Source: Chloroflexota bacterium
Lineage (GTDB): Bacteria; Chloroflexota; Anaerolineae; DTLA01
DNA: 64,000 nt
Direction of reading: 5' to 3'
Assembly (NCBI GenBank): GCA_014360805.1
Contig: JACIWU010000003.1
Span: 5,020-69,019 of the forward strand
The translations under genes were made by a program, and so were the position numbers. Within the stretch, counting starts at the first letter, position 1. Each line of letters opens with the position of its first letter. Shown here one piece after another: positions 1,192-19,823 of this stretch. The notes under the pieces were generated by a model, which saw only the letters and a program-made list of their open reading frames with translations, was not told the DNA's origin and searched no databases.

Positions 1192-1200
1192 GGCAGCCTC

Positions 1201-3357: not shown

Positions 3358-3514
3358 GTCCCCCTCCTCGCTAGTCTTTCGGCGCCCCGGTCGGCCCGGA
3401 AAACGAAAGGCGAAGCCGTTGCCGACAGGGAACGCCACAACCTTCCTGTCGGCGCACATGCTTCGCCCGGATTGGACTGCGCCTTCGCACGTCTGAGACC
3501 TCCGTGGGCTCCGA

Positions 3515-3560
3515 CTCTTCTTGCGCCCATTATATCACGATGCGCAAAAGGCCACAAGCC
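3515..3560 (-). promoter_or_regulatory. Putative extended -10 promoter (TTGTGG-17-TGATATAAT) for the acd-etfBA operon
   Basis: The reverse complement of gcgcccattatatcac is GTGATATAATGGGCGC. The same GTGATATAATGGG core recurs at 18196. This would imply a 5' UTR of about 160 nt. Confidence 0.35.
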
Positions 3561-3605
3561 AGGCCCGCCGGAGGGGATGGTTACGGGCCAATCGGACCCG
3601 CGGAA

Positions 3606-5603
3606 TCAAGCGGGTTGGGCCACCTCCACACTCGCGAGGCTGTAGGGGCTGACCGGCGCGCCTGTCTCCCGCGCCCGCAGCCAGCGCAACATCATCGCGT
3701 CGCCGCTGGCCCCGAAGCGGTGCGGGTCGTAGCGGGCCAGGCCCAGCGCGGCGCGCTTGGCGTCTATGTGCGCTAGCGACCGCGCGACAATCTCTTCGGG
3801 ATCGCGCACGAATTCCAACTTGCCGCCGACGCGCTGCTCCCACCCCTGGCTGATGAACTCGGTTACGACGGGGCTGGCCTCCACAGGGTTGTCGCCTCCG
3901 AACAGCGTGTACACACCCGAAGCGACCAAGTATGCCCCGATGGACACCGCTTTCTCGCTCATCCATTCGGGCGCGATGCCCACGCCGGGGATGTCGCTGA
4001 TGTCTTCGCCCAGCCCGCCCTCGGTCGCCATCTGCGACAACACCGTGAGGATGCGCGAATTGTCCACGCACGACCCCATGTGGAGCACGGGCGGGATTCC
4101 CAGCGCCTCGCAGACCTCACGTAGCCCCGCGCCAACCTCATTGAACGCCTGTTCCGGCGACAGCAGCCCGTACTTCGCCGCCGAAATCGCCCCGCATCCG
4201 GTTTGCACCACCAGCACGTCATTGCGGATGAACTCGCGGACGATGTACTCGTGCGCCGCATCATGCGCGCTGGCGCGGGGGTTGTTGCACCCCGCCACGC
4301 CCGCCACACCCCGAATGCGGCCCTGCACGATCGCCTCGTTGAGCGGGCGAAACGACCCCCGATACACGCCGCCCATCATATAGTTCAGGTACTCATGGGA
4401 GAACCCGGCCACCAGGTTGCTCTTGAACTGCGGAATGCGGGTCTCGCCGCGATTGGGGTAGTTGTCAATCGCCATGCGCACCAGGTCTTTGGCGATGGCC
4501 AAGGCGCGCCGCTCGTCCATCTCCACGTGGAGCGCGCCGTGGATTTTCACCTTGGGCGAGGTGGTTACGAGTTTGGTGTGGAACCGCTGGGACAGCGGGG
4601 CCAGCGCCTCCATGATGCATTGCACATCCACCACCATCATCTCCACCGCGCCGGTGAGGATGGCAAGTTCCTGGCTGAGGAAGTTGCCCGCCGTGCCCAC
4701 GCCCTGCCGCATGAGAACCTCGTTGGCCGTGCAGCAGATGCCCGTCAGGTTGATACCCGTCGCGCCCTTGGATTGGGCGTAGGCGATGAGTTCGGGATCC
4801 TGGGATGCCGCGACGATCATCTCCGACAGCGTCGGCTCGTGGCCGTGGACAACGATGTTGACGGTGTCCTTGCCCAGGATGCCCAGGTTGGCCTGGGATT
4901 GCAAAGGCGCGGGCGTGCCGAACAGGATGTCGGTGATGTCGGTGGCCAGCATGGAGCCGCTCCAGCCGTCGGCCAGGGCGCAGCGCAGGCCGGCCATGAG
5001 GATGTGCTCGTGGTCCTGGTCGTCGCCGATGTGGGTGCGGTGGAGCAAATCCACCACCTCGCGGTCAATGCCGCGTGGCGCGATGCCCAGATTGCGCCAG
5101 ATTTCCTGGCGCGGCTTGGGGGCGCGGCGCAGGTAGGCGGCCTCCTTGCGTTGCGACGTGAACTGCTCCATGGCCTTGAGCGCCACGTCGCGGGCCACCT
5201 CCATCGTGCCTCGCTTCTCGGTGGCCACGCCCAAGAAACGCGCCACCTCGCGCAGTTTTCGCTCGTCGCGGATTCGGTAGTCGGGCGCTTCGCCTTCGGC
5301 GGCGGCCAGCAGGGTGAACACCAGGTCGCGCCCGTGATCGGAGTGGGCCGCTGCGCCTACCGCGATCATGCGGGCGAAGTTGCGTGAGGTAACGGTCTCT
5401 ATCGTGGCCCCGCAGATGCCCGTCTGGCCGGGCTTCACCAGGCGGCACGGGCCCATGTGGCAATGCTTGCAGCACGCGCCGATGTGCCCGATGGGGCAGG
5501 GCTTCATCGCCTCGGCGCGGCTGAATGCCGTGGAGACGCCCTCCTGCTCGGCGTACTCCAGCAGGGTACACACCGCAGGGTCAATACTCTTTGTCGTTGC
5601 CAT
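3606..5603 (-). CDS. cooS: Anaerobic Ni-dependent carbon monoxide dehydrogenase catalytic subunit (CooS-type)
   Basis: The N-terminal stretch EQEGVSTAFSRAEAMKPCPIGHIGACCKHCHMGPCRL carries the C-x7-CC-x2-C-x4-C pattern of CooS clusters D and B. The HGHEP and GCNNP motifs of the C-cluster region are also present. I chose MATTKS as the start because it follows a GGAGAGGAGAG ribosome-binding site. Confidence 0.8.
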   Translation of the reverse strand: MATTKSIDPAVCTLLEYAEQEGVSTAFSRAEAMKPCPIGHIGACCKHCHMGPCRLVKPGQTGICGATIETVTSRNFARMIAVGAAAHSDHGRDLVFTLLAAAEGEAPDYRIRDERKLREVARFLGVATEKRGTMEVARDVALKAMEQFTSQRKEAAYLRRAPKPRQEIWRNLGIAPRGIDREVVDLLHRTHIGDDQDHEHILMAGLRCALADGWSGSMLATDITDILFGTPAPLQSQANLGILGKDTVNIVVHGHEPTLSEMIVAASQDPELIAYAQSKGATGINLTGICCTANEVLMRQGVGTAGNFLSQELAILTGAVEMMVVDVQCIMEALAPLSQRFHTKLVTTSPKVKIHGALHVEMDERRALAIAKDLVRMAIDNYPNRGETRIPQFKSNLVAGFSHEYLNYMMGGVYRGSFRPLNEAIVQGRIRGVAGVAGCNNPRASAHDAAHEYIVREFIRNDVLVVQTGCGAISAAKYGLLSPEQAFNEVGAGLREVCEALGIPPVLHMGSCVDNSRILTVLSQMATEGGLGEDISDIPGVGIAPEWMSEKAVSIGAYLVASGVYTLFGGDNPVEASPVVTEFISQGWEQRVGGKLEFVRDPEEIVARSLAHIDAKRAALGLARYDPHRFGASGDAMMLRWLRARETGAPVSPYSLASVEVAQPA

Positions 5604-6570: not shown

Positions 6571-6675
6571 GAACCGTGCGGCGCACTTCCGAGGTGCGCC
6601 GCACGGTTCGCGCTCTGGAATGCTGAAGCGTGGCGTTGGCATTTGGAATGCTGAAGCGTGGCTTCAGCATTCCAA
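6571..6675. repeat. REP-like palindromic element (16-bp arms GAACCGTGCGGCGCAC/GTGCGCCGCACGGTTC) followed by a duplicated TGGAATGCTGAAGCGTGGC and a second 13-bp-arm hairpin
   Basis: I verified both perfect inverted repeats by reverse-complementing them. They lie in the 210-bp gap between the oxidase subunit I stop and the hemerythrin gene. Confidence 0.7.
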
Positions 6676-6690
6676 GTCTTCGCGGTTGGG

Positions 6691-8337
6691 CTACGCCTCC
6701 GCCGGAGCCAAAGCCGGTTTGCGCTCCAGCCACCGCTCCGGCACCACCAGGCTCAGCACGTTCTTCCACCCCAGCGTGGCGATGATGTTGATGAGGAAGG
6801 CGACAAAGCCCACTGCAATGAGGATGCCGCCGATGACGGCCAGAATCTCGTTCGTCTGGTACTGGCTGCCTTCGGGGTACAGCGTTCGGCGCAACATGCC
6901 CCTCGCCCCCGCCATGCCCATCACGTAGGCCATCCCTACCGAGCCGATCATCCACAGCCAGAAGTGGGCGTCCACGAGGCGTTTGCTCTTGATCTCCAGG
7001 TTCGTCAGCATGGGGATCAGCGCGTACACCACGGCGAACAAGAGCATTGCCAGTCCGGTCAGCAGGAAGGTATGCGCGTGGAGCGACACGACCCACTGGG
7101 TGTTGTGGAACACCACGTTCAGCCCCACGTTGGCCTGGATGAGGCCCGCCGCGCCGCCCATGATGAACCCGAACATGGAGCCGAGCACGAACTTCAGCGG
7201 CGGCGAGAACTTCACGGGCCGCGCCAGCCAGATGGTCATCAGCGTGGCGAACAGCGTCAGGCCCATGGTGAAAAACTCGCCCCACGTGATGAACTGCCCC
7301 GAAATGAGCCGCATCCACAGCGGCTGGCTCTGATCGCCCAGCAGGTGGTGGCTCCATACGCCCAGGGACACGAGCAAGTCCACCATGATGACCGTCTTCA
7401 CCACGTTCTCGCCGAACAGTTTGCGGCCCACCAGCAGCGGCACCAGCAGGTACCACACCCCCGCCGTGTACATGAGCACGTTGCCGTCGGCCACCATGTC
7501 CAGCCCCCACCAGAACCAGTTCTTGTAGATGAGCGGGTCAATGGCGGCGGGGTTCAGCGGCGACTTCACAAGCGCCGCGATGCCATAGACCAAAATCAAC
7601 GCCCCCGCCGTGAGGAGCACGATGGCGTTGATGACGGTGTCAATGGAGCCGCGCGCCACCGCCACGATGAACACGGGCAGCCCGTTGTAGTCCAGGTTGG
7701 GCGCGGCCTTGTCCTCTTTGCCCAGGCGCTTCATCAGCCGCGAGATGCCGAACGCCGCCCGCAGAAACGCGCCGAAACTGTACGAGCCTGGGTTGCTCTT
7801 GCTCAGCACGGTGCTGAAGGTGTTGAACGAGAACAGCAGGATGTTGACCATGATGATGGCCGCGCCGACGGTGAAGGCGATGCTCCCGATGAGCGGCACG
7901 CGGTCATAGGACACGGGCAGCGGCCAGTAGAGCGTGTACAGCGAATTGAACAGCCCGAAGAACCCCGCGCCCCAGCAAATCATCACGCCGACAATCTGCG
8001 CCCAGAAGTTGAAGACCAGCAGTTTCTTGTGGCGAACTTCTTTGCCGAGGAGATAAGGAACCAGGAAGTAAAACGCGCCGAACACCAGCATGTAGGCGAA
8101 GCCGTAGATGCCGACGATGGGGTGCGCCGTGAGCATCGCGTAGAACAATTCCGCCGAGGACACCTCGCGCCCCACGGGCCGCAGCGCCATCAGCGCCTCC
8201 TCCATGCCCCGGAGCGCGCCGGGCGCCGCCAGTTGGGTACGCATGAGCATTCCCTCAAACCCCGACAGCGCCAGGAACAGCAGCCCCACCACCGCGAACC
8301 GCAGCATCCACTTCGTTTGCCAAGTGAGTTTCGCCAT
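6691..8337 (-). CDS. Heme-copper oxidase superfamily subunit I, NOR-like and divergent
   Basis: The protein is 548 aa with about 12 TM helices. It has the helix-II TAHPIVG His ligand, the helix-VII WSHHLLG His pair and the helix-X LHAHTF His pair. The helix-VI position reads WFWWGLDMVADG instead of W..GH(P/N).V. It has no N-terminal quinol-binding extension. Confidence 0.8.
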   Translation of the reverse strand: MAKLTWQTKWMLRFAVVGLLFLALSGFEGMLMRTQLAAPGALRGMEEALMALRPVGREVSSAELFYAMLTAHPIVGIYGFAYMLVFGAFYFLVPYLLGKEVRHKKLLVFNFWAQIVGVMICWGAGFFGLFNSLYTLYWPLPVSYDRVPLIGSIAFTVGAAIIMVNILLFSFNTFSTVLSKSNPGSYSFGAFLRAAFGISRLMKRLGKEDKAAPNLDYNGLPVFIVAVARGSIDTVINAIVLLTAGALILVYGIAALVKSPLNPAAIDPLIYKNWFWWGLDMVADGNVLMYTAGVWYLLVPLLVGRKLFGENVVKTVIMVDLLVSLGVWSHHLLGDQSQPLWMRLISGQFITWGEFFTMGLTLFATLMTIWLARPVKFSPPLKFVLGSMFGFIMGGAAGLIQANVGLNVVFHNTQWVVSLHAHTFLLTGLAMLLFAVVYALIPMLTNLEIKSKRLVDAHFWLWMIGSVGMAYVMGMAGARGMLRRTLYPEGSQYQTNEILAVIGGILIAVGFVAFLINIIATLGWKNVLSLVVPERWLERKPALAPAEA

Positions 8338-8349
8338 CTCACACCTCCC

Positions 8350-8772
8350 CTATGGCACTACGCGAATGGCATTCGGGAAGTACATCTCCGAATGGCGCGG
8401 GCCTGAGTATTCGGTGGAACGCACATCGTACACGCCAGGGGTGTCAAACTTCCACGTAATCTTGTTCTCGTAGCCCGGCAGGACCTGCATCTGGAAGACC
8501 ATCGTCCCATCGGGACGGAACACCCCGAAGCCGTAGGTTACGTCCTTGGACGTGGCGACAAACTGCACGAACTCATTGACCTTGACCTGCACGCCGCCCT
8601 GGGGAAACCGAATCTGGTAGTCTTCAAACTCCAGCGGAACGATTCGGTCGGGCGTGGGGCGAGACCACAGGAGCCACCGTTGCCAGGGAACCAAAGGCGA
8701 GAGTGTGATGGCGTTGACGAGCAGGAACACGCCCACGAGGACGAACAACCAGTTCCGTTCCCGTTTGTCCAT
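8350..8772 (-). CDS. Heme-copper oxidase subunit II-like cupredoxin protein, Cys-free with no CuA or heme c site
   Basis: The protein is 140 aa with an N-terminal TM helix. Its C-terminal beta-rich domain ends ...STEYSGPRHSEMYF, which resembles a degenerate CuA loop lacking both Cys. It contains no CxxCH motif. It is immediately upstream of subunit I. Confidence 0.55.
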   Translation of the reverse strand: MDKRERNWLFVLVGVFLLVNAITLSPLVPWQRWLLWSRPTPDRIVPLEFEDYQIRFPQGGVQVKVNEFVQFVATSKDVTYGFGVFRPDGTMVFQMQVLPGYENKITWKFDTPGVYDVRSTEYSGPRHSEMYFPNAIRVVP

Positions 8773-8773
8773 C

Positions 8774-8878
8774 TCAATCTCCTTTCTCCCTCACTTTCCA
8801 GGCGAAGAGCAGCATGAAGAGGATCGCCAGAACCAGGAATGCCGTGTAAGCCCACCAGATGACATCCGTTGCGTACAT
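8774..8878 (-). CDS. 34-aa single-TM peptide, possible accessory oxidase subunit
   Basis: This ORF is not in the track. My translation is MYATDVIWWAYTAFLVLAILFMLLFAWKVREKGD. It is preceded by an AAGGAGGG ribosome-binding site. Its stop overlaps the subunit II start in a TGAGATG arrangement. Confidence 0.45.
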   Translation of the reverse strand: MYATDVIWWAYTAFLVLAILFMLLFAWKVREKGD

Positions 8879-9100
8879 AGCCCCCTCCTTGTGGTTTTTG
8901 CAGCACGCGGGTCTGCGAGGATAAGGCGGAGACTTCCGCCCTCATACGAAAATTCTAGCATCGCTGCAAGGCCACGTCTGTAACTTTTGTCGCAAATCGC
9001 GGCATGGCGCGGCCCGCAATATCCCGCTCCCATGCAGGCGACATGCGGATTGTCGGTAGGTCTTGCAGTAACGCTGTAAGATTTCCTCACAATAGCGCAT

Positions 9101-9130
9101 TAAAATATTGACAGCCGCTCGCAATCCGTG
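9101..9130 (+). promoter_or_regulatory. Sigma70-like promoter of htrA (TTGACA-18-TATAAT) with a leader of about 190 nt
   Basis: The sequence ttgacagccgctcgcaatccgtgctataat is a consensus hexamer pair in an AT-richer island of a GC-rich genome. Confidence 0.5.
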
Positions 9131-9327
9131 CTATAATGTGCGCAGAGATCCTTCAACCCTGGCGCCTCATCTGGTCAACGCACGCGGCACCTCGGCACCG
9201 TTTGGTCGGAGAAAGGCGGGTGCTGTGGAATCCTGTCCTTCGGCAAGCATCTGTCGCACAATCGGATTGTCCCCACCCGCCTCTGCCAACGCGTGGGGAA
9301 ATGCAATGTTCAAGGAGCAGAGCACAA

Positions 9328-10485
9328 ATGAAAGCGCGGTTTGACGTACGCAAGTCCTGGGTCTTTTTCGCGGCGGTGTTGCTCCTTCTCCTGGGCTGCG
9401 GCTTCACAGGAGATGGCACATCCACGTCGCCGAGGGCCACGCCGCAACCCACGGCGCTCCCCGTGGTCGTCGCCACGGCCACGCCGCTCCCCCAGCAGGA
9501 CTACGAGTCGCTGGAACTGGAGGAGCGCCTGCTGGTGAACCTGGTCCAGCGCGTCGGTCCCTCGGTGGTGCACATTCAGATCACGACGGCCACCGGCTCG
9601 GGCTCGGGTTCGGGCTTCTTCTACGACCGCGAAGGGCACATCGTTACGAACAACCACGTGGTGGAAGACGCCGAGACCATTCGGGTTGTGCTGGCCGACG
9701 GGTCCCAGGTCGCGGCCGAGGTCGTGGGCACCGACCCCGACGCGGACCTGGCCGTGATCCGCGTGGACGCGCCGGCCGACCTGATCGTGCCGGCCGAACT
9801 GGGCGACTCCAGCAAGGTTCAGGTGGGCCAGTGGGCCGTCGCCATCGGCAACCCGTTTGGCCTGGAACGCACGGTAACGCGCGGCATCATCAGCGCGCTG
9901 GGGCGGGTCTTCCCGCAGGAGAGCGGGTTCTCCATCGCCAACCTCATCCAGACCGACGCCGCCATCAATCCAGGCAACTCCGGCGGGCCACTGCTGGACT
10001 TGCGGGGCCGCGTCATCGGCGTCAACACCATGATCGTGTCGGAGACCGGCGCGTCGGCGGGGCTGGGGTTTGCCATCCCCGTGAACATCGTCAAGAAGGT
10101 GGCGCCCGCCCTCATCAAAGACGGCTTCTACGCGCACCCGTGGCTGGGCATCCAGGGCTACACCATCACGCCCGAACTGGTGGAGGCTCTGGCCCTGCCC
10201 GTGGAGCGCGGCGCGCTGGTGGGCCAGGTAACGGCCGGCGGCCCTGCCGATAAGGCCGGGCTGCGAGGCGGGCGGCGCACCGTGCGGGTGCCCGGCTACT
10301 TGGAGCCGGTCCAGGCCGGCGGCGACATCATCGTGGGCATAGACGGCAATCGGGTAACCGGCATGGACTCGCTCATCAGTTACCTGGACTTCACCGAGGC
10401 CGGCCAGGTTGTCGTGCTGGATGTGATTCGCGGCACAGAGCGGCTGTCCATTCGGGTTACCCTGGGCCAGCGCCCGCGCAGGTAA
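9328..10485 (+). CDS. htrA: HtrA/DegP-family serine protease with a PDZ domain, lipoprotein signal peptide
   Basis: The start follows an AAGGAG ribosome-binding site. The signal peptide has an LLGC lipobox. The trypsin-fold motifs GNSGGPL and HVVEDAE are present, followed by a C-terminal PDZ domain. Confidence 0.9.
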   Translation: MKARFDVRKSWVFFAAVLLLLLGCGFTGDGTSTSPRATPQPTALPVVVATATPLPQQDYESLELEERLLVNLVQRVGPSVVHIQITTATGSGSGSGFFYDREGHIVTNNHVVEDAETIRVVLADGSQVAAEVVGTDPDADLAVIRVDAPADLIVPAELGDSSKVQVGQWAVAIGNPFGLERTVTRGIISALGRVFPQESGFSIANLIQTDAAINPGNSGGPLLDLRGRVIGVNTMIVSETGASAGLGFAIPVNIVKKVAPALIKDGFYAHPWLGIQGYTITPELVEALALPVERGALVGQVTAGGPADKAGLRGGRRTVRVPGYLEPVQAGGDIIVGIDGNRVTGMDSLISYLDFTEAGQVVVLDVIRGTERLSIRVTLGQRPRR

Positions 10486-10501
10486 CCGTGGGAGGAGATC
10501 C

Positions 10502-10843
10502 GTGACCGGCAATCCTTCGCCGCAGGAACCCTGCTACGTCATCAGTGTGGCGGCAAAGTTGGTGGGTGTTCATCCCCAGACCCTTCGCTACTACGAGAGT
10601 CTGGGGTTGATCAAGCCATGCCGGTCGCCGGGGAACAGGCGGCTGTACTCGCCCCGCGACATTGAACGATTGCGGCAAATCCAGCGTCTTACGGATGAGT
10701 TGGGCGTCAACCTGGCGGGGGTGGAGGCCATCTTGTCGCTCATGGATCAAGTCGCGCAGATGAAAGCGGAGATGGAAGCCCTACAGGCGCGCTTTGAACG
10801 CGAAGTTGCCTTGCTGAAGAGCAAGTTGCAGGGTAGCGAGTAG
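10502..10843 (+). CDS. hspR: MerR-family heat-shock regulator (HspR-like)
   Basis: The ORF has a GTG start after a GGGAGGAG ribosome-binding site. The MerR helix-turn-helix reads CYVISVAAKLVGVHPQTLRYYESLGLIKP. It sits upstream of clpB in the classic HspR arrangement. Confidence 0.8.
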   Translation: MTGNPSPQEPCYVISVAAKLVGVHPQTLRYYESLGLIKPCRSPGNRRLYSPRDIERLRQIQRLTDELGVNLAGVEAILSLMDQVAQMKAEMEALQARFEREVALLKSKLQGSE

Positions 10844-10880
10844 GCGGCAAGAAATCGGATCATGCAAACAGGAGGACAGT

Positions 10881-11972
10881 ATGTTTGACGAAAAGGACGT
10901 TCGCGAACTGGCGGCTTTTCACGCAGATGGAGCCACGGTGTTGAGCCTGTACCTGAGCACAGATCCTTCCCGCCATCTCAAGGACGAAGCGAAGTTGAGC
11001 CTGCGCGGAATGTTGAAGCAGGCGATCGCGCTGGGCGCGGCCCAGTCCGACGCGGACCGCATGGAGCGTTTCGTGGACTTGGAATACGATTGGAAGGCCA
11101 AGGGGTTGGCCATGTTCTCGTGCCAGGAGGAGGGTTTCTGGCGGGCCCTTCCGGTCAGCGTGCCGGTCAGCAACCACGTCTTCGTGGCCGACCGACCGTA
11201 TGTGAAGCCGCTGAGCGACATGCTGGACGAATACGGCAAGTTCGCCGTGGCGCTGGTGGACCAGGAAGGAACCCGCGTGATCCTGTACCATCTCGGCATG
11301 GTGGAAGACACCGCGGGGACATTCGGCACGGAGTTGAAGCGCCACAAGAAGGGCGGCTGGGCGGCCCAGCGGTTGCAGCGCCGCCAGGATGAGAAAGCCC
11401 ACCAGAATCTGAAAGAGGCCGCGTCGCTCGTCAAAGACTTCTGCAACAGGCACCAGTGCAAGCGGCTCATCGTGGGCGGGCAGGACGAGACGGTGTCAAA
11501 GTTTCTGACCATGCTGCCCAAGGCATTGCGCGATAGTGTGATCGGCACCATGTCCATAGACATCACGGCGTCGGAAAGCGAGGCGCTGGAGCGGGCGCAA
11601 GATTTGCTGGAGGAGGCAGAGCGCGCTCGCGAAGCCGAACTCGTCCAGCAGGTGGTTACCGCGGCGACCAAAGGCGGGCCGGGTGCTATCGGCCTGGCCG
11701 ACACGCTGACCGCGCTCCAGGAGGAGCGGGTGCATATCCTCGTGGTGGAAGAGGGCTTCCAGGCCACCGCGTTCCGATGCGACCACTGCGGCTACATCGG
11801 CGCCCAAGATACGGGAAAATGCGTCTATTGCGGAGGCCCCATGGTTCTCATCAAGGACGCGGTGGATGCCATCGTCCGCCGCGCCATCCAGCGGGGCGTG
11901 GAGGTGGAATTCGTGCAGGGGAACGACGCCCTGACGCGCGCAGGCCAGATCGGCGCGCTCTTGCGGTATTAG
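10881..11972 (+). CDS. eRF1/Pelota-like (baeRF1 or host-attachment-family) protein with a C-terminal zinc ribbon
   Basis: The loop ELKRHKKGGWAAQRLQRRQDEKAH closely parallels the eukaryotic eRF1 GGQ loop KKHGRGGQSALRFARLR, with GGQ replaced by GGW. The C-terminus carries CDHCGY...CVYCGG. Confidence 0.55.
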   Translation: MFDEKDVRELAAFHADGATVLSLYLSTDPSRHLKDEAKLSLRGMLKQAIALGAAQSDADRMERFVDLEYDWKAKGLAMFSCQEEGFWRALPVSVPVSNHVFVADRPYVKPLSDMLDEYGKFAVALVDQEGTRVILYHLGMVEDTAGTFGTELKRHKKGGWAAQRLQRRQDEKAHQNLKEAASLVKDFCNRHQCKRLIVGGQDETVSKFLTMLPKALRDSVIGTMSIDITASESEALERAQDLLEEAERAREAELVQQVVTAATKGGPGAIGLADTLTALQEERVHILVVEEGFQATAFRCDHCGYIGAQDTGKCVYCGGPMVLIKDAVDAIVRRAIQRGVEVEFVQGNDALTRAGQIGALLRY

Positions 11973-12015
11973 CCCCTGCACCCAGGGCCGGCACGCGCCG
12001 GCGAGGTGAAGACCT

Positions 12016-14493
12016 ATGATGCGATTTGATCGGTTTACAGAGCGCGCGCAGGATGCGGCCATGCGCGCCTACGAGATCCTTCAGCGCTACAACCACACGC
12101 AGGTGGACACCGAGCACCTGCTCCTGGCGCTGATAGAACAGTCGGGGGGCGTGATCCCCCAGATTCTGGACAAACTGGGCGTGGACGCCGAGACGCTCAA
12201 GCAGCGCCTTGAGGCGACATTGCGCGCCGCGCCCAGAACCGCGGGGTTCGGCAGCGCCATGCCCGGCCAGATGTTCATCACGCCGCGCCTGAAGCACGTG
12301 GTGGACACCGCCAACGAGGAAGCGAATCGCCTGAAGGACGACTACATCTCCACCGAGCACCTGTTCCTGGCCATCCTGGCGGAGCGGGGCTCGCCGGCGT
12401 CGCGGCTGCTGGAAGAGATGGATGTTACCCGCGAGCGCGTCCTGGACGCCATTGCGCAGGTGCGGGGCGGGCAGAAGGTTACCTCTCCGCAGGCCGAATC
12501 ACGCTACCGCACGTTGGAGCGGTACACGCGCGACCTCACCCAACTGGCCCGGGAGGGCAAACTGGACCCCGTCATCGGCCGCGACAAAGAGATCATGCGC
12601 GTGATGCAGATTCTGTCGCGCCGCACCAAGAACAACCCGGTGCTCATCGGCGAGGCGGGCGTGGGCAAGACGGCCATCGTGGAGGGCCTGGCCCAGAAGA
12701 TTGTGCAGGACGACGTGCCCGAAATCCTGATGGGCAAGCGCGTCCTCGCCCTGGACCTGGGCGCGATGGTGGCGGGCACGCGGTTCCGCGGCGAGTTTGA
12801 GGAGCGCCTGAAGACCGCCATTGAGGAGATTCAGCGCGCCCAGGGCGAGATCATCCTCTTCATTGACGAACTCCACACCGTAGTTGGCGCGGGCGCCGCC
12901 ATGGGCGCTATGGACGCCTCCAACATGCTGAAGCCCGCCCTGGCCAGGGGCGAACTCCAGTGCGTGGGCGCCACGACGCTAGACGAATACCGTCGCTACA
13001 TAGAGAAAGACGCGGCCCTGGAGCGCCGTTTCGCGCCCGTGTTCGTGGACGAGCCGTCGGTGGAGGAGACGATCCAGATGCTGCGGGGCGTGCGCGATCG
13101 CTACGAGGCGCATCACAAGGTGCGCTTCTCCGACGAAGCCTTGGTCGCCGCGGCGCGCCTGTCCAAACGCTACGTAACCGACCGGCACCTGCCCGACAAG
13201 GCCATTGACCTGATAGACGAGGCGGCCTCCAAACTGCGGATGGCGATTCACAGCATGCCGCCCGAACTCAAGGAGAAGCGGGCCGCCATCCACAAACTCG
13301 CCACCGAGGAAGAGGCCGCCTGGCAGCGTCGCGACTACGAAAAGGCCGCCGTCTATCGCAGCGAGCGCCTGCGGTTGGAACAGGAATTCAACGCCGCCCG
13401 CGAAGCCTGGCAGCGCGAAAAGAACATTGACGAAGTCGTGGACGTGCAGGACATCGCCGAGGTGGTGGCCACGTGGACCGGCATACCGGTTACGGCGCTC
13501 ATGGAGACCGAAGCCGAGCGCCTCGTGCACATGGAGGAGCGGCTCCACGAGCGCATCGTGGGGCAGGATGAGGCCATCCGCGCCGTGTCCAACGCCATCC
13601 GCCGGGCGCGGTCCGGGCTGAAAGACCCGCGCCGCCCCATCGGGTCGTTCATCTTCCTCGGCTCGTCGGGCGTCGGCAAGACCGAGTTGGCCAAGGCGCT
13701 GGCCTGGTTCCTGTTTGACGACGAGGAGGCCCTGGTGCGCGTGGACATGAGCGAATACCGCGAGCGCCACACGGTGTCCCGTCTCATCGGCGCGCCGCCC
13801 GGCTACGTGGGCTACGAAGAGGGCGGGCAACTGACCGAGGCCGTCCGCCGCAGACCCTATCAGGTCGTGCTGTTTGACGAGATAGAGAAGGCGCACCCCG
13901 AAGTCTGGAACGCCCTGCTGCAGATTCTGGAGGACGGCCGCCTGACCGACGGCCAGGGCCATACGGTGGACTTCCGCAACACGGTGGTCATCATGACCTC
14001 CAACATCGGCACACAGTACACCCGCAAGGGCGGCACGTTGGGCTTCCGCGCGGGCGACGCGCGGGACGCCGAGGAGCGGGCCGCGCACGAGGCCATTGAG
14101 CGCGGCCTGCGCGAGACCTTCCGGCCCGAGTTCCTGAACCGCGTGGACGAGATCATCATCTTCCACACGCTCACGTTGGACCAGGTCAAGCAGATCGTGG
14201 ACCTCCAGATGAAGGAGATTCGCGCCCGTCTGCGCGAGCAGGGCGTGGAGGTGGAATTGACCGAGGCCGCGCGCGACTGGCTGGCGCGGGAGGGCTACGA
14301 CCCCAACTTCGGCGCGCGACCGCTGCGCCGGGCGCTCCAGAAGCACGTGGAGAACGCCCTGGCGCTGCGCCTGCTGAGCGGCGAATTCCGAGAGGGCGAC
14401 ATCATCATCGTGGATGCAGGCGACACGGGCATCCGCTTCTACCGCAAGGAGAGCGTGGAACTCCCGTCGGATTCCGTCGCCGCAAGCCCGTGA
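12016..14493 (+). CDS. clpB: ClpB AAA+ disaggregase chaperone
   Basis: The Clp N-domain is followed by two Walker A motifs (GEAGVGKT and GSSGVGKT) with a coiled-coil middle domain between the nucleotide-binding domains. Confidence 0.95.
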
Positions 14494-14503
14494 GCAGGGC
14501 GCC

Positions 14504-15613
14504 ATGGCCGAAGCGCGGGGCGACTTGCTGGAGATAGACGGCTCCTTCGGCGAGGGCGGTGGGCAGATTCTGCGCACGGCCCTGTCGCTGGCCGTGGCGC
14601 TGGGCCGGCCGTTTCGCATGCGTCGGATACGGGCGGGCCGCCCCACGCCCGGGTTGCGGCCCCAGCACCTGCTGGCCGTGCGCGCGGCGGCGGCGCTCTG
14701 CGGCGCGACGGTGGAGGGCGACCGCATCGGGTCCCAGGACTTGCTGTTCGCGCCCCAACGCCGACCCGCCGGCGGCGACTATACGTTTGACGTGGGGGCC
14801 ACAGAAGCGGGCGGAAGCGCAGGAGCCGTCTCGCTGGTGTTCCAGACGCTGTTTCTGCCCCTGTCGCTGGTTGGCGCGCCCTCGCGGCTGACGCTGGTCG
14901 GAGGGACGCACGTGCCCTGGAGCCCGCCGTTCCACTATCTGGCGCACGTGTACCTGCCGGCGGTCGCCCGTTTGGGGTTTGCGGCAGACCTGGCGTTGGA
15001 ACGGTGGGGCTGGTACCCGAAGGGCGGGGGCGTCGTCCATGCCCGCATCCGGCCCCGGCAGCATGCGGCGGCGGACGCGCCCTCCGGCGAGCGCGCGGAG
15101 TCGGCCCTGGACTGGACGCGGCGAGGGCGCATCACCCGCATCTGGGGCATCAGCGCGGCGTCCAACCTGCCGGCGCACATCATCCAGCGGCAAAAGGCCC
15201 AGGCGCTGGAGACGCTCCGCAAGGCCGGTCTTCGCGCCGAGATAGACGAGGTGGAAGCGCCTGCGGTGGGCTTCGGCACGGTGGTCTTCCTGGTCGCCGA
15301 GTACGAACGCGGCCTGGGCGGATTCACCGCCTACGGCGCGCTGCGGAAGCCCGCCGAGCGCGTCGCCGAGGAGGCAGCCCGTGAACTCGTGCGGTCTCAC
15401 GAGACGAAAGCCGCCGTGGACGAGCATCTGGCCGACCAGTTGCTGCTGCCCGCGGTGCTGGCCGGGGTGGATGTGGCGTTCACCACGCCGCGGGCCACCG
15501 AGCATCTGCGTACCAACGCCTGGGTCATAGAGCAGTTTCTCGGCCAGCGGGTGGCGATTGAACCTCACCCGACGGGCGCGCTGGTTCGGGTGCGCGGCGC
15601 GAGTGCAGGGTAA
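14504..15613 (+). CDS. rtcA: RNA 3'-terminal phosphate cyclase
   Basis: The N-terminus reads LEIDGSFGEGGGQILRTALSLA and the protein has the RtcA-family length and pattern. Confidence 0.85.
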   Translation: MAEARGDLLEIDGSFGEGGGQILRTALSLAVALGRPFRMRRIRAGRPTPGLRPQHLLAVRAAAALCGATVEGDRIGSQDLLFAPQRRPAGGDYTFDVGATEAGGSAGAVSLVFQTLFLPLSLVGAPSRLTLVGGTHVPWSPPFHYLAHVYLPAVARLGFAADLALERWGWYPKGGGVVHARIRPRQHAAADAPSGERAESALDWTRRGRITRIWGISAASNLPAHIIQRQKAQALETLRKAGLRAEIDEVEAPAVGFGTVVFLVAEYERGLGGFTAYGALRKPAERVAEEAARELVRSHETKAAVDEHLADQLLLPAVLAGVDVAFTTPRATEHLRTNAWVIEQFLGQRVAIEPHPTGALVRVRGASAG

Positions 15614-15745
15614 GGCGGGTGTCCCCTCTCCCGCCGGGAGAGGGTTAGGGTGAGGGGCATCGGGCATGTCCCCGAACCCGCCATACGGGACACGGGGCGG
15701 CTACGGCCGAAGCCCCGCGCAGCATGACAACACAATGGAGACAGC

Positions 15746-16693
15746 ATGTTTGAACTCATCTTTCTCGGAACATCGGCATCCGCCCCGTCCGTCAAGCGCG
15801 GGCTGTCATCGGCGATGGTGCTCCACAAGGAGTACCGCTTCCTGATAGACTGCGGCGAGGGCACCCAGCGGCAACTGCTCAAGAGCGGCCTGGGCTTCAA
15901 GCGCATGGACCGAATCCTCATCACCCACGGGCACTTGGATCACATCCTGGGTCTGGGGGGGTTGATGTCCACCTTCGCCCGATGGGAGTCCATAGACCGC
16001 GTGGAGATCATGGGCGGGGCGTGGGCGCTGGAGCGCGTGCGCACCCTGATGAACGTCGTCTTCGGCGAGGGTATCCCGCCCATAGAAATCGTGTACACCG
16101 AACTGGAGCCGGGTATCGTGCTGCAGGACGACTCCTTTGCGCTCATCGCCTTTCCGGTGCAGCACCGAGGGCCTGGGTGCTTCGGGTTCACGTTCTACGA
16201 GAAGGAGAAGCGGCCCTTCCTGGTGGACAAGGCCGAGGCGCTGGGCCTCCCGGCGGGGCCCGAGCGGGCGCGGCTGGTGCGCGGCGAGACGGTGAGGCTG
16301 GCCGACGGGCGCATTATCACCCCCGACGACGTGCTGGGCGAGCCGATCGGCGGGGCCAAGTTGGTGTTCGTCGGCGACGCGGGGAGCACCGACGGGCTGG
16401 CGAGCGTGGCCCGGCACGCCGACGCCCTGGTCATTGAGGCCACGTACACCGACGAGGAAGCCGACATGGCCCGCAAGTTCGGGCACCTGACGGCGTCGCA
16501 GGCGGCGCGGCTGGCCGCGGATGCCAACGTGCGCCTGCTCATCCTGACGCACATCTCGCGGCGCTACTCGGAGCGGCAGATTCTGGGCGAGGCCACGCGC
16601 ATCTTCCCCAACACCGTCGTGGCCAACGACTTTGACACGTTCCGCATCATCAAGCGCGAACCCGCCGCCCAGGCCGACAGCAACGGGGGGTGA
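15746..16693 (+). CDS. rnz: Ribonuclease Z (tRNA 3' endonuclease, metallo-beta-lactamase fold)
   Basis: It has the metallo-beta-lactamase motif HGHLDH. The N-terminus FLGTSASAPS and the protein length fit RNase Z. Confidence 0.9.
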   Translation: MFELIFLGTSASAPSVKRGLSSAMVLHKEYRFLIDCGEGTQRQLLKSGLGFKRMDRILITHGHLDHILGLGGLMSTFARWESIDRVEIMGGAWALERVRTLMNVVFGEGIPPIEIVYTELEPGIVLQDDSFALIAFPVQHRGPGCFGFTFYEKEKRPFLVDKAEALGLPAGPERARLVRGETVRLADGRIITPDDVLGEPIGGAKLVFVGDAGSTDGLASVARHADALVIEATYTDEEADMARKFGHLTASQAARLAADANVRLLILTHISRRYSERQILGEATRIFPNTVVANDFDTFRIIKREPAAQADSNGG

Positions 16694-16699
16694 GGCGCG

Positions 16700-17923
16700 C
16701 TACGTCCGAACCCTCCGCACGATCAGCGCACCGAGCGCGGCCAGAATCAGCGCCGCCGACGAGCATATCGGCGTGGGGGCAGGCTCTTGTTGCGGGCGCG
16801 GCGTCGGCAACACGGGTGGCGTGGTGGGCGCAGGCGTGGGTTGCGGCGGCGCGCCGATGGCCTCTCGCCAGCGCGCGTCCAGTTCGTCAATCCCGAAGCC
16901 GTACACCTCGCGCAGGGCATCCTCCTGGTACACGCCCCTCTTAAACGTCTTGAGGAGCGCATCCATCTTGTCCGCGCCAAAGGTATCAATGAGGAACTTC
17001 ACGACCGAGTAGCACTCGCCGTAGAACAAATCCACCTGCGAGGGGTCGCCCGTGTAGGCCGAAAGCGACCGCACCGAAATCAGGGTGTTGGTGCGAATCG
17101 CCCGCTCCAAGTCCGACTGATTCTCGCCGCGCAGGTCCCCTTCGGCGTACATGGCCAGGCCCTCGTCCAGCCACGTGGGCAGCCCGCCCAGCGGGTTGTC
17201 GGTGTACGCGCCGATGACGATATGGCTCAACTCGTGGGCGATGGTACGGTCGGCGTCGGCGGCCGTGGACAGGATGACGATGGTATCGCCGCCCATCGCC
17301 ATGCCCAGGGTGATGGTGGCGATGTCGTAGGACTCGCTGCGCGACGGGATGGCAAGCCGCATGTCGGCCTTGCTGCGGTACAGGAAGATGCGGATGGGTT
17401 TTTGGAGTTCTACCCCCGTGCCGGCCTGAAGGCGTTGCAGAGCCGCCTGGGCCGCGGCCATAATCTTGTCGGCCTCGCGTTGGCTATCGCCATACCAGTG
17501 GACGACCAGGTTGCCCTCCTGGCGCTGCTTCCAGGTGAAGCGGCTGTCCTCATAGGTTACCGTGGCGCGCTCGGTCTCCAGCGTGCGCCCGTCGGCCAGT
17601 TCGGCCCGCCACCAGTAGGTAACGACCCTGCCTGGCGGCACGTCCCCAGGCTCCAGTTCCCACGTCCACTCGGCGTTGATGCGGGTGCCGGTGTCGTCCA
17701 GGTTCACGCGGTTGCGCGCCCGCTCGCCCTCCAGTTGGTAGAGCAGGTGCAACGCCTGCACAGGCGAGGCCGTCTGCGCCTGCAAGGCAAAGGTGATGGA
17801 GGCGCCGAAGTCCACCTTCGCGGTCAGGCGGCTGCCCGTCCACGGCTCCTGAGCCTGGGCCGGCATGGCGGGCAGAAGCGCCATCAGGAGCAAGACGGCG
17901 ATGACGAGGCTACGCGTTCTCAT
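16700..17923 (-). CDS. Secreted zincin (HExxH) peptidase-like protein with a C-terminal hydrophobic anchor
   Basis: The start at MRTRSLVIAVLLLMALLPAMPAQA is a signal peptide. HELSHIV is a zincin motif. The protein has a Pro/Thr-rich linker and then ends AALILAALGALIVRRVRT. Confidence 0.55.
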   Translation of the reverse strand: MRTRSLVIAVLLLMALLPAMPAQAQEPWTGSRLTAKVDFGASITFALQAQTASPVQALHLLYQLEGERARNRVNLDDTGTRINAEWTWELEPGDVPPGRVVTYWWRAELADGRTLETERATVTYEDSRFTWKQRQEGNLVVHWYGDSQREADKIMAAAQAALQRLQAGTGVELQKPIRIFLYRSKADMRLAIPSRSESYDIATITLGMAMGGDTIVILSTAADADRTIAHELSHIVIGAYTDNPLGGLPTWLDEGLAMYAEGDLRGENQSDLERAIRTNTLISVRSLSAYTGDPSQVDLFYGECYSVVKFLIDTFGADKMDALLKTFKRGVYQEDALREVYGFGIDELDARWREAIGAPPQPTPAPTTPPVLPTPRPQQEPAPTPICSSAALILAALGALIVRRVRT

Positions 17924-18155
17924 CGGGCTTCCCCACGGTCTCCAGCGAGACTTTGGTGATGTCCAACTGCTCGGGCGGCACGTCCATGTACTTGTCCCCT
18001 TCCTCAATCAGCATGACGGGGATGTCCTCCACAATCGGGTACTTGCGGCGGCACTGCGGGTTCGGGCACACCAGCCACGAATCGCCGAACATCTGCACTT
18101 TGGTTCGGCACTGGGGGCAAACGAGAATGTCCAACAATTCTGGGTCTAGCGCCAT
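17910..18155 (-). CDS. Trm112-like (DUF343) small zinc-ribbon protein
   Basis: The sequence reads MALDPELLDILVCPQCRTKV...LVCPNPQC...YPIVEDIPVMLIEE. Confidence 0.6.
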   Translation of the reverse strand: MALDPELLDILVCPQCRTKVQMFGDSWLVCPNPQCRRKYPIVEDIPVMLIEEGDKYMDVPPEQLDITKVSLETVGKPDENA

Positions 18156-18214
18156 CTCCACGGACTCCACGGATAGGATTGGTCTTTGAGCACGCCCCAT
18201 TATATCACAAAACC

Positions 18215-18243
18215 TTGCGCACGGCACGTGGACATGCTACAAT
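18215..18243 (+). promoter_or_regulatory. Putative promoter of the SGNH hydrolase gene (TTGCGC-17-TACAAT). A divergent minus-strand -10 box (TGTGATATAAT) lies at 18196-18208 for the Trm112-like gene.
   Basis: Hexamer spacing is 17 bp. The plus-strand sequence ccccattatatcac reads on the minus strand as an extended -10 box. Confidence 0.4.
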
Positions 18244-18249
18244 GAGGGC

Positions 18250-19182
18250 GTGAAGAAAGGGTGGATGTGGACAATTGCAGCCCTGGCGGGGCTGCTCGCC
18301 CTGGAGGGGGCGGCACGGGTGCTGTCGCGGCCCTGGCCGACGCTGGCCGACTTCGCGCTGCGCCGCGAGACCCTGGCGGGCGCAGGGGCCAGGCGCGCCC
18401 CGACCCGCGTCCTCCTCGTCGGCGATTCTATCGTGTACGGGCACGAGGTCTCGGCTCACGACGCCTACCCCACGGTGATCGCAAATCTGTGGGGGGCGGC
18501 GCATCCCGACCTCCCCGTCGCGTTTATCAACGGCGGCGCGAACGGGCTGACGACAATGCACGGGGTGCAGTTGCTGCCCCTTCTGCTGCGCACTTTCCGA
18601 CCGCAGGTGGTGGTCATCGCCTTCGGGCTGAACGACGCCAACCTGGCGCGGTCGTACAGCGACGCGCGGCTGGAGGCGGCCTTTGCCGCGCCGACGTGGG
18701 TTCGGGCCATGCGCCATTCCCGCCTGTTCGTCGGCCTGGAACGGCGCTGGCGCAGATGGCAGGCGCAATACGCCGCGTGGGAGGGCAAGCGGTGGGAGCC
18801 GCGCGTCTCCGAGGGAATCTTCGCCCAGGCGCTGGACTGGATGGGTCGGCGGGCAGAGCGAGCGGGGGCGCGGGTCGTGTTTCTGACCACCACGCCGCTG
18901 GCGCCAGAGTTTCGGCCCGAATTGGACGCCGCGTCGCGCCTGGAGTTGCGGCGGTCGTGCGACGCCTACAATGCGCGGGTGCGGGCGGTGGCGTCGGCGC
19001 GGCGCGCGCGCCTGCTGGACGTGTACGCCCAACTCCGCCTCCCGCCTGGCGACTGGCTGGCGGATGGCGTCCACCTGAGCGCGAGCGGGTATCGCAAACT
19101 CGCCGCGTATGTGCATGAGCGCCTGGAGCCGCTGTTGCTTGGCCTGCCCGCCTGCGAAGAACCGACGGGGGTTGTCCGATGA
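18250..19182 (+). CDS. SGNH/GDSL-family hydrolase
   Basis: Blocks VGDSIVYG, GLNDAN and DGVHLS are present. Confidence 0.75.
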   Translation: MKKGWMWTIAALAGLLALEGAARVLSRPWPTLADFALRRETLAGAGARRAPTRVLLVGDSIVYGHEVSAHDAYPTVIANLWGAAHPDLPVAFINGGANGLTTMHGVQLLPLLLRTFRPQVVVIAFGLNDANLARSYSDARLEAAFAAPTWVRAMRHSRLFVGLERRWRRWQAQYAAWEGKRWEPRVSEGIFAQALDWMGRRAERAGARVVFLTTTPLAPEFRPELDAASRLELRRSCDAYNARVRAVASARRARLLDVYAQLRLPPGDWLADGVHLSASGYRKLAAYVHERLEPLLLGLPACEEPTGVVR

Positions 19183-19823
19183 CCAAGCGCAAACTGGTGC
19201 TGCGGGAAGTATCCGACCCGCGCGTCCTGGCGGCGATGGAAGCCGTGCCGCGCCACCGATTCGTGCCGGCGCAGTACGCCGAGGACGCCTATGACGATCA
19301 CCCGCTCCCCATCGGCTACGGCCAGACGATTTCCCAACCGTACATCGTGGCCCTGATGACTCAGTTGCTGGAACTCAAGGGGCACGAGAAGGTGCTGGAA
19401 ATCGGCGCAGGCTCCGGCTATCAGGCGGCGATCCTGTCCCTGCTGGCCCGCGAGGTATTCACCGTGGAGCGCATCCCGCAACTGGCCGAGAAGGCCCGCG
19501 AGCGGTTGAGCGAACTAGGGTATCGCAACGTGCACATTCGCATCGGCGACGGCTACGAGGGCTGGCCCGAGCACGCCCCCTACGATGCCATCATCGTAAC
19601 GTGCGCGGCGGAGGAGGTACCCCCGCCCCTGATTGAGCAACTGGCCGACGGCGGCCGCCTGGTCATCCCCGTGGGCGAGTCGGGCTGGTCCCAGCGGCTG
19701 ATGCTGTTGCGCAAGCGCGGCGCCGAGTTGGAGCAGCGCGAGATCGCCGGCGTGGTGTTCGTGCCCCTGGTGCGCGGCGTCGCGCAGCCGCCGGAAAACG
19801 CAGGAGGTCCCGATGAATCTTGA
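19179..19823 (+). CDS. pcm: Protein-L-isoaspartate O-methyltransferase
   Basis: It contains QTISQPYIVALM and the SAM-binding motif VLEIGAGSGYQAA. Confidence 0.9.
   Translation: MTKRKLVLREVSDPRVLAAMEAVPRHRFVPAQYAEDAYDDHPLPIGYGQTISQPYIVALMTQLLELKGHEKVLEIGAGSGYQAAILSLLAREVFTVERIPQLAEKARERLSELGYRNVHIRIGDGYEGWPEHAPYDAIIVTCAAEEVPPPLIEQLADGGRLVIPVGESGWSQRLMLLRKRGAELEQREIAGVVFVPLVRGVAQPPENAGGPDES

Follow-up and report, generated by a model that had tools for sequence, protein, structure and literature searches.

Bacterial homologs of archaeal and eukaryotic release factor 1 (aeRF1) were defined as the baeRF families (Burroughs & Aravind 2019), and in 2024 they were recognised as a third family of ribosome hibernation factors. 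Since 2024, Balon, Msmeg1130, Rv2629 and a homolog from Synechocystis have been shown by cryo-electron microscopy to be non-catalytic hibernation factors of the ribosomal A site, which makes the description of such proteins as poorly characterised, given in an earlier note on the DNA treated here, outdated. It was reported that Msmeg1130 binds the A site and inhibits translation (PMC10901736) and that Balon genes lie in stress operons with chaperones, raiA being the commonest Balon neighbour in the literature. The DNA analysed here, referred to as the window, is a 64,000-nucleotide stretch of contig JACIWU010000003.1 (GCA_014360805.1) from a Chloroflexota bacterium, with a GC content of 65.7%. 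One of its genes, located at 10881..11972 on the + strand, encodes a 363-residue aeRF1 homolog in which the Gly-Gly-Gln (GGQ) of eRF1 is replaced by Gly-Gly-Trp (GGW), and this gene is embedded among heat-shock genes.

In its general character, a bacterial aeRF1 homolog without GGQ encoded in a chaperone stress operon, the protein corresponds to what had been described in 2019 and 2024. Three specifics, namely the GGW signature, the retention of a zinc ribbon, and the tight synteny with ClpC-type, HspR, DnaJ and HtrA genes in Chloroflexota, were not found in the searchable literature, and the searched supplementary text of the Balon paper, as far as that text goes, does not mention Chloroflexi. 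A question in the field is which subfamilies of aeRF1 homologs are passive A-site plugs and which of them keep catalytic or rescue activity. The Chloroflexota subfamily is a well-defined test case for this question, with Gly-Gly and the basic helix kept, an aromatic residue at the Gln position, an ancestral zinc ribbon, and a heat-shock operon. In our judgement, the 363-residue protein is probably a heat-shock-induced, non-catalytic ribosomal A-site binder of the Balon type. This reading is based on the Pfam family common to the protein and Msmeg1130, together with the best sequence and fold matches to Msmeg1130; on a Balon-like N domain without NIKS, the absence of the catalytic Gln, and a loop that appears to tolerate remodelling; and on the Trp that is also present in Rv2629.

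Family and fold of the 363-residue protein

The gene and the relevant parts of its product are the following.
10881..11972, + strand: baeRF_family10/Balon-like aeRF1 homolog, 363 residues (Pfam PF18854, PDB sequence match, AlphaFold2 (AF2) fold)
11196..11600, + strand: middle domain, eRF1 domain 2-like, residues 106-240 (span of the Pfam baeRF_family10 match)
11352-11360, + strand: G158-G159-W160, positional counterpart of the eRF1 GGQ (HMMER alignment on aRF1/eRF1)
11778-11831, + strand: zinc ribbon CxxC-N10-CxxC inside the C-terminal domain, formed by C300, C303, C314 and C317 (conservation, aRF1 alignment)

The open reading frame (ORF) begins with ATG, and an AGGAGG ribosome-binding site is located 7 nucleotides (nt) 5' of the start. 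A hypothetical protein of a Chloroflexi metagenome-assembled genome has the same sequence as its product, and no paralog was found within the window. The loop reads ELKRHKKGGWAAQRLQRR in the ORF map and the raw sequence, and ELKRHKKGGWAAQRLQRRQDEKAH is present in the translated ORF; the 363-residue frame with an eRF1-like loop and a Gln-to-Trp replacement, as claimed in the earlier note, is thereby borne out.

Profile searches assign the protein to Pfam baeRF_family10 (PF18854; 119.7 bits, E 1.5e-34, residues 106-240, gathering threshold 27.1 bits) and to the broad Balon/baeRF-1 clade. Weaker Pfam cross-matches were obtained with other baeRF families, with eRF1_2, and with acVLRF1 (44.7 bits, middle domain). 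The NCBIfam model TIGR03676 for aRF1_eRF1 matched with an E of 5.9e-24, but its score of 84.6 bits is below the cutoff of 234.7. The scores against the hibernation-factor equivalogs of NCBIfam were 95.7 (cutoff 480) for the MSMEG_1130 family, 93.9 (cutoff 320) for the Rv2629 family, and 53.9 (cutoff 330) for the AOC03_06830 family; judged by these profiles, the window protein belongs to a separate subfamily outside the three curated equivalogs.

The top match in a sequence search of the PDB was the Balon homolog Msmeg1130 (8v9j_z, E 2e-11), which aligned over the full length (residues 6-362) at ~20% identity. The second was archaeal aRF1 (4af1, E 1.5e-10), aligned from residue 95, with GGW on GGQ and the second CxxC on the insert of the aRF1 C domain. 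Rv2629 (8v9k) was also matched, with its AGW aligned on GGW, and Pelota gave no match in this search. For P. urativorans Balon, no sequence similarity was detectable by phmmer. The aRF1/eRF1 alignments in the PDB begin at residue 94-95 and the Msmeg1130 alignment at residue 6, and the NIKS motif is absent from the window protein; on these alignments the N domain is Balon-like and not eRF1-like. The sequences of Msmeg1130 and Rv2629 were rebuilt from the PDB alignments and scanned against Pfam, which assigned the first of these proven factors to baeRF_family10 (124.6 bits) and the second to baeRF_family2.

The AF2 model, built on 75 homologs, reached a predicted local distance difference test score of 87.6 and a predicted template modelling score of 0.72. 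It was confident except in the GGW loop, whose low score is unsurprising, since such a loop would be flexible away from the ribosome. The three-domain aeRF1-like fold is present in the model, and Foldseek comparison against the PDB ranked ribosome-bound Msmeg1130 first (8v9l_z; E 1.9e-26, template modelling score (TM) 0.73/0.71). Rv2629 (8v9k_z) and P. urativorans Balon (8rdw_B) were found with TM 0.66-0.67 and E ~1e-18 to 1e-19, aRF1/eRF1 ranked after Msmeg1130 with TM ~0.5, and the best Pelota match was ranked 26th (E 8e-11, TM 0.43). The eRF1 homology that the earlier note had claimed is thus real: the PF18854, TIGR03676 and 4af1 matches identify a genuine aeRF1-superfamily (baeRF-1) protein, and both the profile and the AlphaFold comparison that the note had proposed gave significant similarity to eRF1, and the AlphaFold comparison also a weaker one to Pelota. 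Judged by sequence and model together, the nearest relatives of known function are the Balon-type hibernation factors.

Three other identities were considered and rejected. Assignment to aRF1/eRF1 is opposed by the TIGR03676 score, the absence of NIKS, and the replacement of Gln by Trp, and assignment to Pelota by the weak fold similarity. A Vms1/ANKZF1-like acVLRF1 protein was rejected on the basis of the NF041024 score (24.7 vs 125), the loop GGWAAQ, and the presence of a Balon-like N domain. Some orthologs are named 'Vms1/Ankzf1 family peptidyl-tRNA hydrolase' by NCBI; this label is not supported, and the annotation should be corrected.

Msmeg1130 of Mycolicibacterium smegmatis (8v9j/8v9l) resembles the window protein in its baeRF_family10 membership, its three aeRF1-like domains, its N domain without NIKS, and its stress-linked gene. 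It differs in the loop, which is ERAGQ in Msmeg1130 and KKGGW in the window protein, in lacking the four-Cys zinc ribbon, and in its reported induction by hypoxia, whereas the window gene lies in an HspR/ClpC heat-shock operon. P. urativorans Balon (8rd8/8rdv/8rdw) and M. tuberculosis Rv2629 (8v9k) share the fold and the lack of a catalytic Gln at the GGQ position, but Rv2629 belongs to baeRF_family2 rather than baeRF_family10, and raiA, the usual companion of Balon, is absent at the window locus. The resemblance to aRF1/eRF1 lies in the homologous middle and C-terminal domains, the loop-helix KRHKKGGWAAQRLQRR of the window protein aligning on KKHGRGGQSALRFARLR; the differences, besides the Gln-to-Trp replacement and the TM of ~0.5, are found in the N domain, where neither NIKS nor YxCxxxF occurs. 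The acVLRF-1 family is linked to the window protein by the Pfam cross-match in the middle domain and by an AAA+ ATPase association reminiscent of Vms1-Cdc48, but it has no N-terminal domain of the codon-recognition type and carries GGxSQ (Burroughs & Aravind 2019), whereas the window protein has three domains and GGWAAQ.

The GGW loop and the zinc ribbon among relatives

The 120 homologs inspected are 43-100% identical to the window protein and nearly all 359-375 residues long, and the named records among them come from Anaerolineae or Caldilineae. Their usual loop is KRHKQGG[W/F]AAxRxQR, and Gln after Gly-Gly was found in 0/120. In an alignment of 75 sequences, G158 and G159 are invariant and the third residue is mostly W or F, which answers, for the orthologs, the question raised in the earlier note of whether the loop similarity is conserved. 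A profile search of 1.84 billion representatives returned 8030 relatives, 1472 of them at E <= 1e-30. In a wider set of 152 representatives (taken from the best 150 of the 8030 relatives and three reference sequences), no triplet is more frequent than GGW (78/152), GGQ occurs in a single sequence, and the consensus loop is QGGW[S/A][Q/A]A. Given this frequency, GGW is a hallmark of the family rather than a local mutation. The two positions at which the family consensus has glutamine are substituted in the window protein (K157 and A162), and Q163 of the window protein is not conserved among orthologs.

A subgroup of orthologs of ~370 residues has a different loop, in which KRHKQGGW is replaced by KRMKHGRGSAAGRRGGV, a Gly/Arg-rich segment 8 residues longer and without an aromatic residue. 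Members of this subgroup include the protein encoded at 2671-3789 of locus L010 and the homologs P0028, P0031, P0033, P0035 and others. These longer-loop orthologs (~50% identity) keep the gene context dnaJ-htrA-baeRF-clpB. The shared function would therefore tolerate remodelling of the loop, and this speaks against an exact catalytic geometry. No observation made here favours specifically peptidyl-tRNA hydrolysis or the rescue of ribosomes or nascent chains proposed in the earlier note.

The C-terminal CxxC...CxxC that was claimed for the protein is present at C300, C303, C314 and C317, and the ribbon is conserved in homologs: in the 75-sequence alignment, conservation of C300 reaches at least 90%, and the other three cysteines do not vary. 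It is located at the insertion site of the C domain, which in many baeRF-1 families is occupied by an insert of two strands (Burroughs & Aravind 2019). In the N domain, the motif conserved in the 75 homologs is LSLYLxxD(P).

Heat-shock neighbourhood and proposed function

The baeRF gene is flanked by the following heat-shock genes.
9329..10485, + strand: htrA/DegP-like serine protease with a PDZ domain (Pfam Trypsin_2 E 4.7e-38, PDZ_2)
10502..10843, + strand: hspR, MerR-family heat-shock repressor, 113 residues (NCBIfam HeatShock_HspR (NF047375), Pfam MerR_1 E 1.2e-19)
12016..14493, + strand: ClpC-type Hsp100 AAA+ unfoldase, 825 residues (PDB matches, M domain, LGF loop)

The hspR product scores 121 bits against the NF047375 cutoff of 105. 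The probable start of htrA is the ATG at 9329, and both this start codon and its AAGGAG ribosome-binding site are conserved in relatives. The Hsp100 gene had been taken for that of the ClpB disaggregase, an identity that was rejected in favour of a ClpC-type protein. In the PDB it is matched best by the S. aureus and B. subtilis ClpC proteins, aligned in one stretch over residues 2-804, and its M domain comprises 86 residues, as compared with 151 in the true ClpB of the related loci L008, L010 and L013. In a gapless alignment to residues 396-725 of S. aureus ClpC, its LGF loop falls on the AGF loop, which we take to be the ClpP-docking loop; the true ClpB of related loci have no LGF-type loop. 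The score of 1151 for the ClpB equivalog TIGR03346 is below the cutoff of 1232, and Pfam Clp_N matches twice. The neighbour should thus be annotated as a ClpC-type unfoldase, presumably able to dock on ClpP. At L008 and L013, a gene for a true ClpB (151-residue M domain, no such loop) lies between the baeRF gene and the ClpC-type gene.

The co-occurrence of the baeRF gene with heat-shock genes, a survey of which had been suggested in the earlier note, was followed at three depths. A single-protein scan of genome contigs gave 4 close relatives only, and the wider context was drawn from homolog contigs and a metagenome scan. The 4 genome relatives (baeRF protein 88-96% identical) keep htrA-hspR-baeRF-clpC. 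On 8 annotated contigs with homologs at 45-52% identity, the arrangements include grpE-dnaJ-htrA(-htrA)-hspR-baeRF-clpB-clpC, dnaJ-htrA-baeRF-clpB, dnaJ-baeRF-clpC, baeRF-clpC, and baeRF...clpC; an Hsp100 gene is present in 7/8, and the remaining arrangement, htrA-baeRF on one contig, has no Clp gene. The metagenome scan yielded 60 non-redundant loci at 44-95% identity. Of the 32 with enough flank, 23 have an Hsp100 gene in the same orientation no more than 2.5 kb downstream; hspR lies directly upstream in 25/51, dnaJ upstream in 16/23, and any heat-shock neighbour is found in 16/19. By tblastn, htrA was detected in 4/23 metagenomic loci, probably an underestimate, and it lies upstream in 4/8 of the Pfam-annotated contigs. 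Complete first-downstream Hsp100 ORFs at the metagenomic loci are ClpC-type in ~20 cases and ClpB-type in 5. The heat-shock neighbourhood of dnaJ, grpE, htrA, hspR and Hsp100 is conserved across Chloroflexota. Orthologs without any Clp neighbour occur at L005, L078, L080 and L083. Among distant GGW family-10 genes, one lies beside SppA in WOR-3, and another (L017, 5001-6452) encodes a 483-residue protein that carries an anti-sigma domain of the zf-HC2 type fused at its N terminus; this gene begins within the 3' end of a gene for an extracytoplasmic function (ECF)-type sigma factor and is followed by hsp20, DoxX, ftsH, dnaJ and a MerR gene.

From the homology, fold, motif conservation and gene context observed here, we infer ribosome binding, absence of hydrolysis and heat induction of the window protein, in the following course of events. 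Proteotoxic or heat stress would lift HspR repression, and the baeRF protein would be co-produced with HtrA and ClpC. It would then enter the ribosomal A site in the manner of Msmeg1130 and Balon, where its N domain, which has no NIKS, may touch the decoding centre with no recognition of a stop codon, and the tip of its middle domain, with the invariant Gly-Gly, W160 and the basic helix, would point toward the peptidyl-transferase centre. Peptidyl-tRNA would not be hydrolysed; translation would be paused and ribosomes protected during the removal of damaged protein by chaperones and proteases. Such a ribosomal role, once shown, would provide a direct link between translational arrest and the proteostasis response to heat shock and would test the 2019 prediction of a catalytic family 10.

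Several observations weigh against a heat-induced, non-catalytic Balon-type factor. All three cutoffs of the curated NCBIfam hibernation-factor equivalogs are missed by far. A conserved HP motif, the element contacting the decoding centre that was defined on the unalignable P. urativorans Balon, is not visible in the N-domain consensus of the 75 homologs. By sequence, the invariant Gly-Gly, the fixed loop length of the GGW class, and the basic flanks appear more release-factor-like than their counterparts in P. urativorans Balon, and family 10 was singled out as possibly catalytic, with a well-conserved glutamine (Burroughs & Aravind 2019). Neither raiA nor hpf was seen as a neighbour of the baeRF gene. 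Heat induction is suggested by the operon context, and the canonical HAIR operator CTTGAGT-N7-ACTCAAG was not found in the window.

A rival explanation, which we regard as unlikely, is an active, stop-codon-independent peptidyl-tRNA hydrolase, that is, a rescue factor entering the A site of heat-stalled ribosomes. According to this explanation, the Gly-Gly backbone would position the water, W160 would stack in the peptidyl-transferase centre, and the released chain would pass to ClpC-ClpP or HtrA, the neighbouring proteases and unfoldases being able, in principle, to accept it. In bacterial release factors, catalysis depends more on the Gly-Gly backbone than on the side chain of Gln, which is a point in favour of a hydrolase, and so are the invariance of G158 and G159 in the 75 sequences, the constant loop length within the GGW class, and the alignment of the loop and the following basic helix on eRF1 HGRGGQSALRFARLR. 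Family 10 was also named the likeliest active hydrolase among the baeRF-1 families (Burroughs & Aravind 2019). Against hydrolysis stand the absence of Gln at the catalytic position from every close homolog, the replacement of the consensus glutamines by K157 and A162 with Q163 unconserved, and the sister subgroup, which in the same gene context has a loop 8 residues longer and without W; moreover, the nearest characterised relatives are non-catalytic, and the scores remain below the cutoffs both for aRF1/eRF1 (84.6 vs 234.7) and for acVLRF1 (24.7 vs 125).

The neighbourhood itself could be read as that of a ribosome-docking adaptor for Hsp100, by analogy with Vms1-Cdc48 or Pelota-ABCE1. Such an adaptor would recognise a stalled or heat-damaged ribosome via its A site and recruit ClpC or ClpB, by which the chain would be extracted or the ribosome dismantled or recycled. 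ClpC needs adaptor proteins. Hsp100 is the most consistent neighbour (23/32 metagenomic loci; 7/8 annotated contigs), and the zinc ribbon, conserved and intact, might serve as an additional surface for interaction. Other proteins of the aeRF1 superfamily have AAA+ or ABC ATPases as partners (Vms1-Cdc48; Burroughs & Aravind 2019). We nevertheless consider the adaptor improbable, since co-regulation in one HspR regulon, to which dnaJ, grpE and htrA also belong, explains the adjacency equally well, the orthologs at L005, L078, L080 and L083 have no Clp neighbour, and distant family-10 genes adjoin other proteostasis genes (SppA; Hsp20 and FtsH). Also doubtful, to a similar degree, is a combined role in which GGW family-10 proteins are the ribosome-recognition arm of HspR-controlled heat-shock quality control, releasing the chain or passing it to ClpC(-ClpP) or ClpB; if true, this would be a bacterial functional analogue of the eukaryotic Vms1-Cdc48 and not a passive hibernation factor. 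The L017 fusion to a zf-HC2 anti-sigma domain, encoded after an ECF sigma gene, brings to mind a stress-sensing or regulatory module whose ribosome-like binding surface senses translational status and signals to transcription. This is very improbable for the window protein, which has neither such a fusion nor a sigma-factor neighbour and whose full three-domain architecture matches that of A-site binders; the fusion would also fit a Balon-type A-site factor if ribosome binding sequesters the anti-sigma domain.

Transcript, control sites and further neighbours

The remaining elements of the locus are the following.
9061..9081, + strand: candidate HspR operator TCTTGCA-N7-TGTAAGA (no other match in the window; 27 nt 5' of the -35 box)
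9108..9137, + strand: sigma-70 promoter TTGACA-18-TATAAT with extended TG (12/12 consensus; conserved in L001, L002 and L004)
9139..9328, + strand: conserved 5' leader of ~190 nt ahead of htrA (alignment and RNAalifold, 4 sequences)
10455..10487, + strand: inverted repeat GGTTACC-N19-GGTAACC (exact; overlaps the htrA stop TAA at 10483-10485)
14504..15613, + strand: rtcA, RNA 3'-terminal phosphate cyclase (Pfam RTC E 3.6e-73)
15746-16693, + strand: metallo-beta-lactamase-fold gene with a tRNase Z (RNase Z-like) match (follows rtcA; kept in close relatives)

The genes htrA-hspR-baeRF-clpC-rtcA probably form one transcript, because there is a single promoter, the gaps are short, and no plus-strand terminator intervenes. 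The site at 9108-9137, 5' of htrA, is the sole promoter-like site in 8700-14900, no plus-strand terminator-like site was found between these positions, and the intergenic gaps are 16, 37, 43 and 10 nt; the second and third of these agree with the distances given in the earlier note for the MerR/HspR and Hsp100 ORFs.

The HspR regulon of Streptomyces comprises dnaK-grpE-dnaJ-hspR and clpB. The window operon resembles the actinobacterial regulon in that a MerR-type HspR is encoded inside a chaperone/protease operon that it presumably represses, and, in the relatives L008 and L013, in HAIR-like repeats over the -35 box. It differs in having no dnaK, in including the aeRF1 homolog, and in having no canonical HAIR in the window. 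The lone HAIR match at up to 3 mismatches, at 19359, lies inside the coding sequence of a protein-L-isoaspartate O-methyltransferase (PCMT) and is at chance level. The repeat at 9061-9081 is perfect (TCTTACA-N7-TGTAAGA) in L002 and L004 and lies within a block that is invariant across the 4 relatives; it is a candidate non-canonical HspR operator, with a spacing unlike that of canonical HAIR. In the distant grpE-dnaJ-htrA-hspR-baeRF-clpB-clpC operons, the HAIR-like CTTGACA-N7-ACTAAAG (L008, 573-593; L013, 1724-1744) lies over the -35 box upstream of grpE. Judged from these motifs, HspR control of the window operon is plausible.

The hairpin at 10455-10487 was correctly located in the earlier note, including its overlap with the htrA stop, but the suggestion that it is a terminator or operator was not upheld. 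It has no T run and lies outside the terminator-like sites, and perfect 7-nt inverted repeats with spacers of 3-40 nt occur once per 149 nt in the window, so that its presence is at chance level. Among the 4 relatives, it is kept only in the closest (baeRF protein 96% identical); L002 and L003, with a baeRF protein 88% identical to that of the window, have lost the 3' arm, and L004 lacks the region.

For the 5' leader, RNAalifold predicted a long-range stem, GGCGGGTG/CACCCGCC, with a few compensatory changes among 4 sequences of 2 lineages. An Rfam scan of 8800-12100, which includes the leader, gave no real match, the one hit (mir-124, E 0.8) being due to chance. The leader might act as a regulatory RNA, for instance as a thermosensor.

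Downstream, rtcA begins 10 nt after the clpC stop, and no rtcB was seen. Its position after clpC is conserved in L001-L004 and is also found in L018, L020 and L022. The RNA-end-processing genes, rtcA and the RNase Z-like gene, may share the heat-shock transcript. Long antisense or overlapping ORFs in 8000-18000 on both strands, for example 6658-8406 (+), 9310-10512 (-) and 12979-14727 (-), were discarded as artefacts of the 65.7% GC content and not counted as genes.

A small Trm112p-like zinc-ribbon protein (Pfam 28.4 bits) is encoded 6 kb downstream at 17913-18227 on the - strand. The Trm112 of eukaryotes and archaea is an activator of the methyltransferase acting on the glutamine of the eRF1 GGQ. 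The bacterial family is widespread, and the neighbourhood is therefore probably coincidental. A gene for PCMT, a protein-repair enzyme, lies near the window operon at 19179-19823 (+), and another lies near the L012 ortholog at 840-1535 (-).

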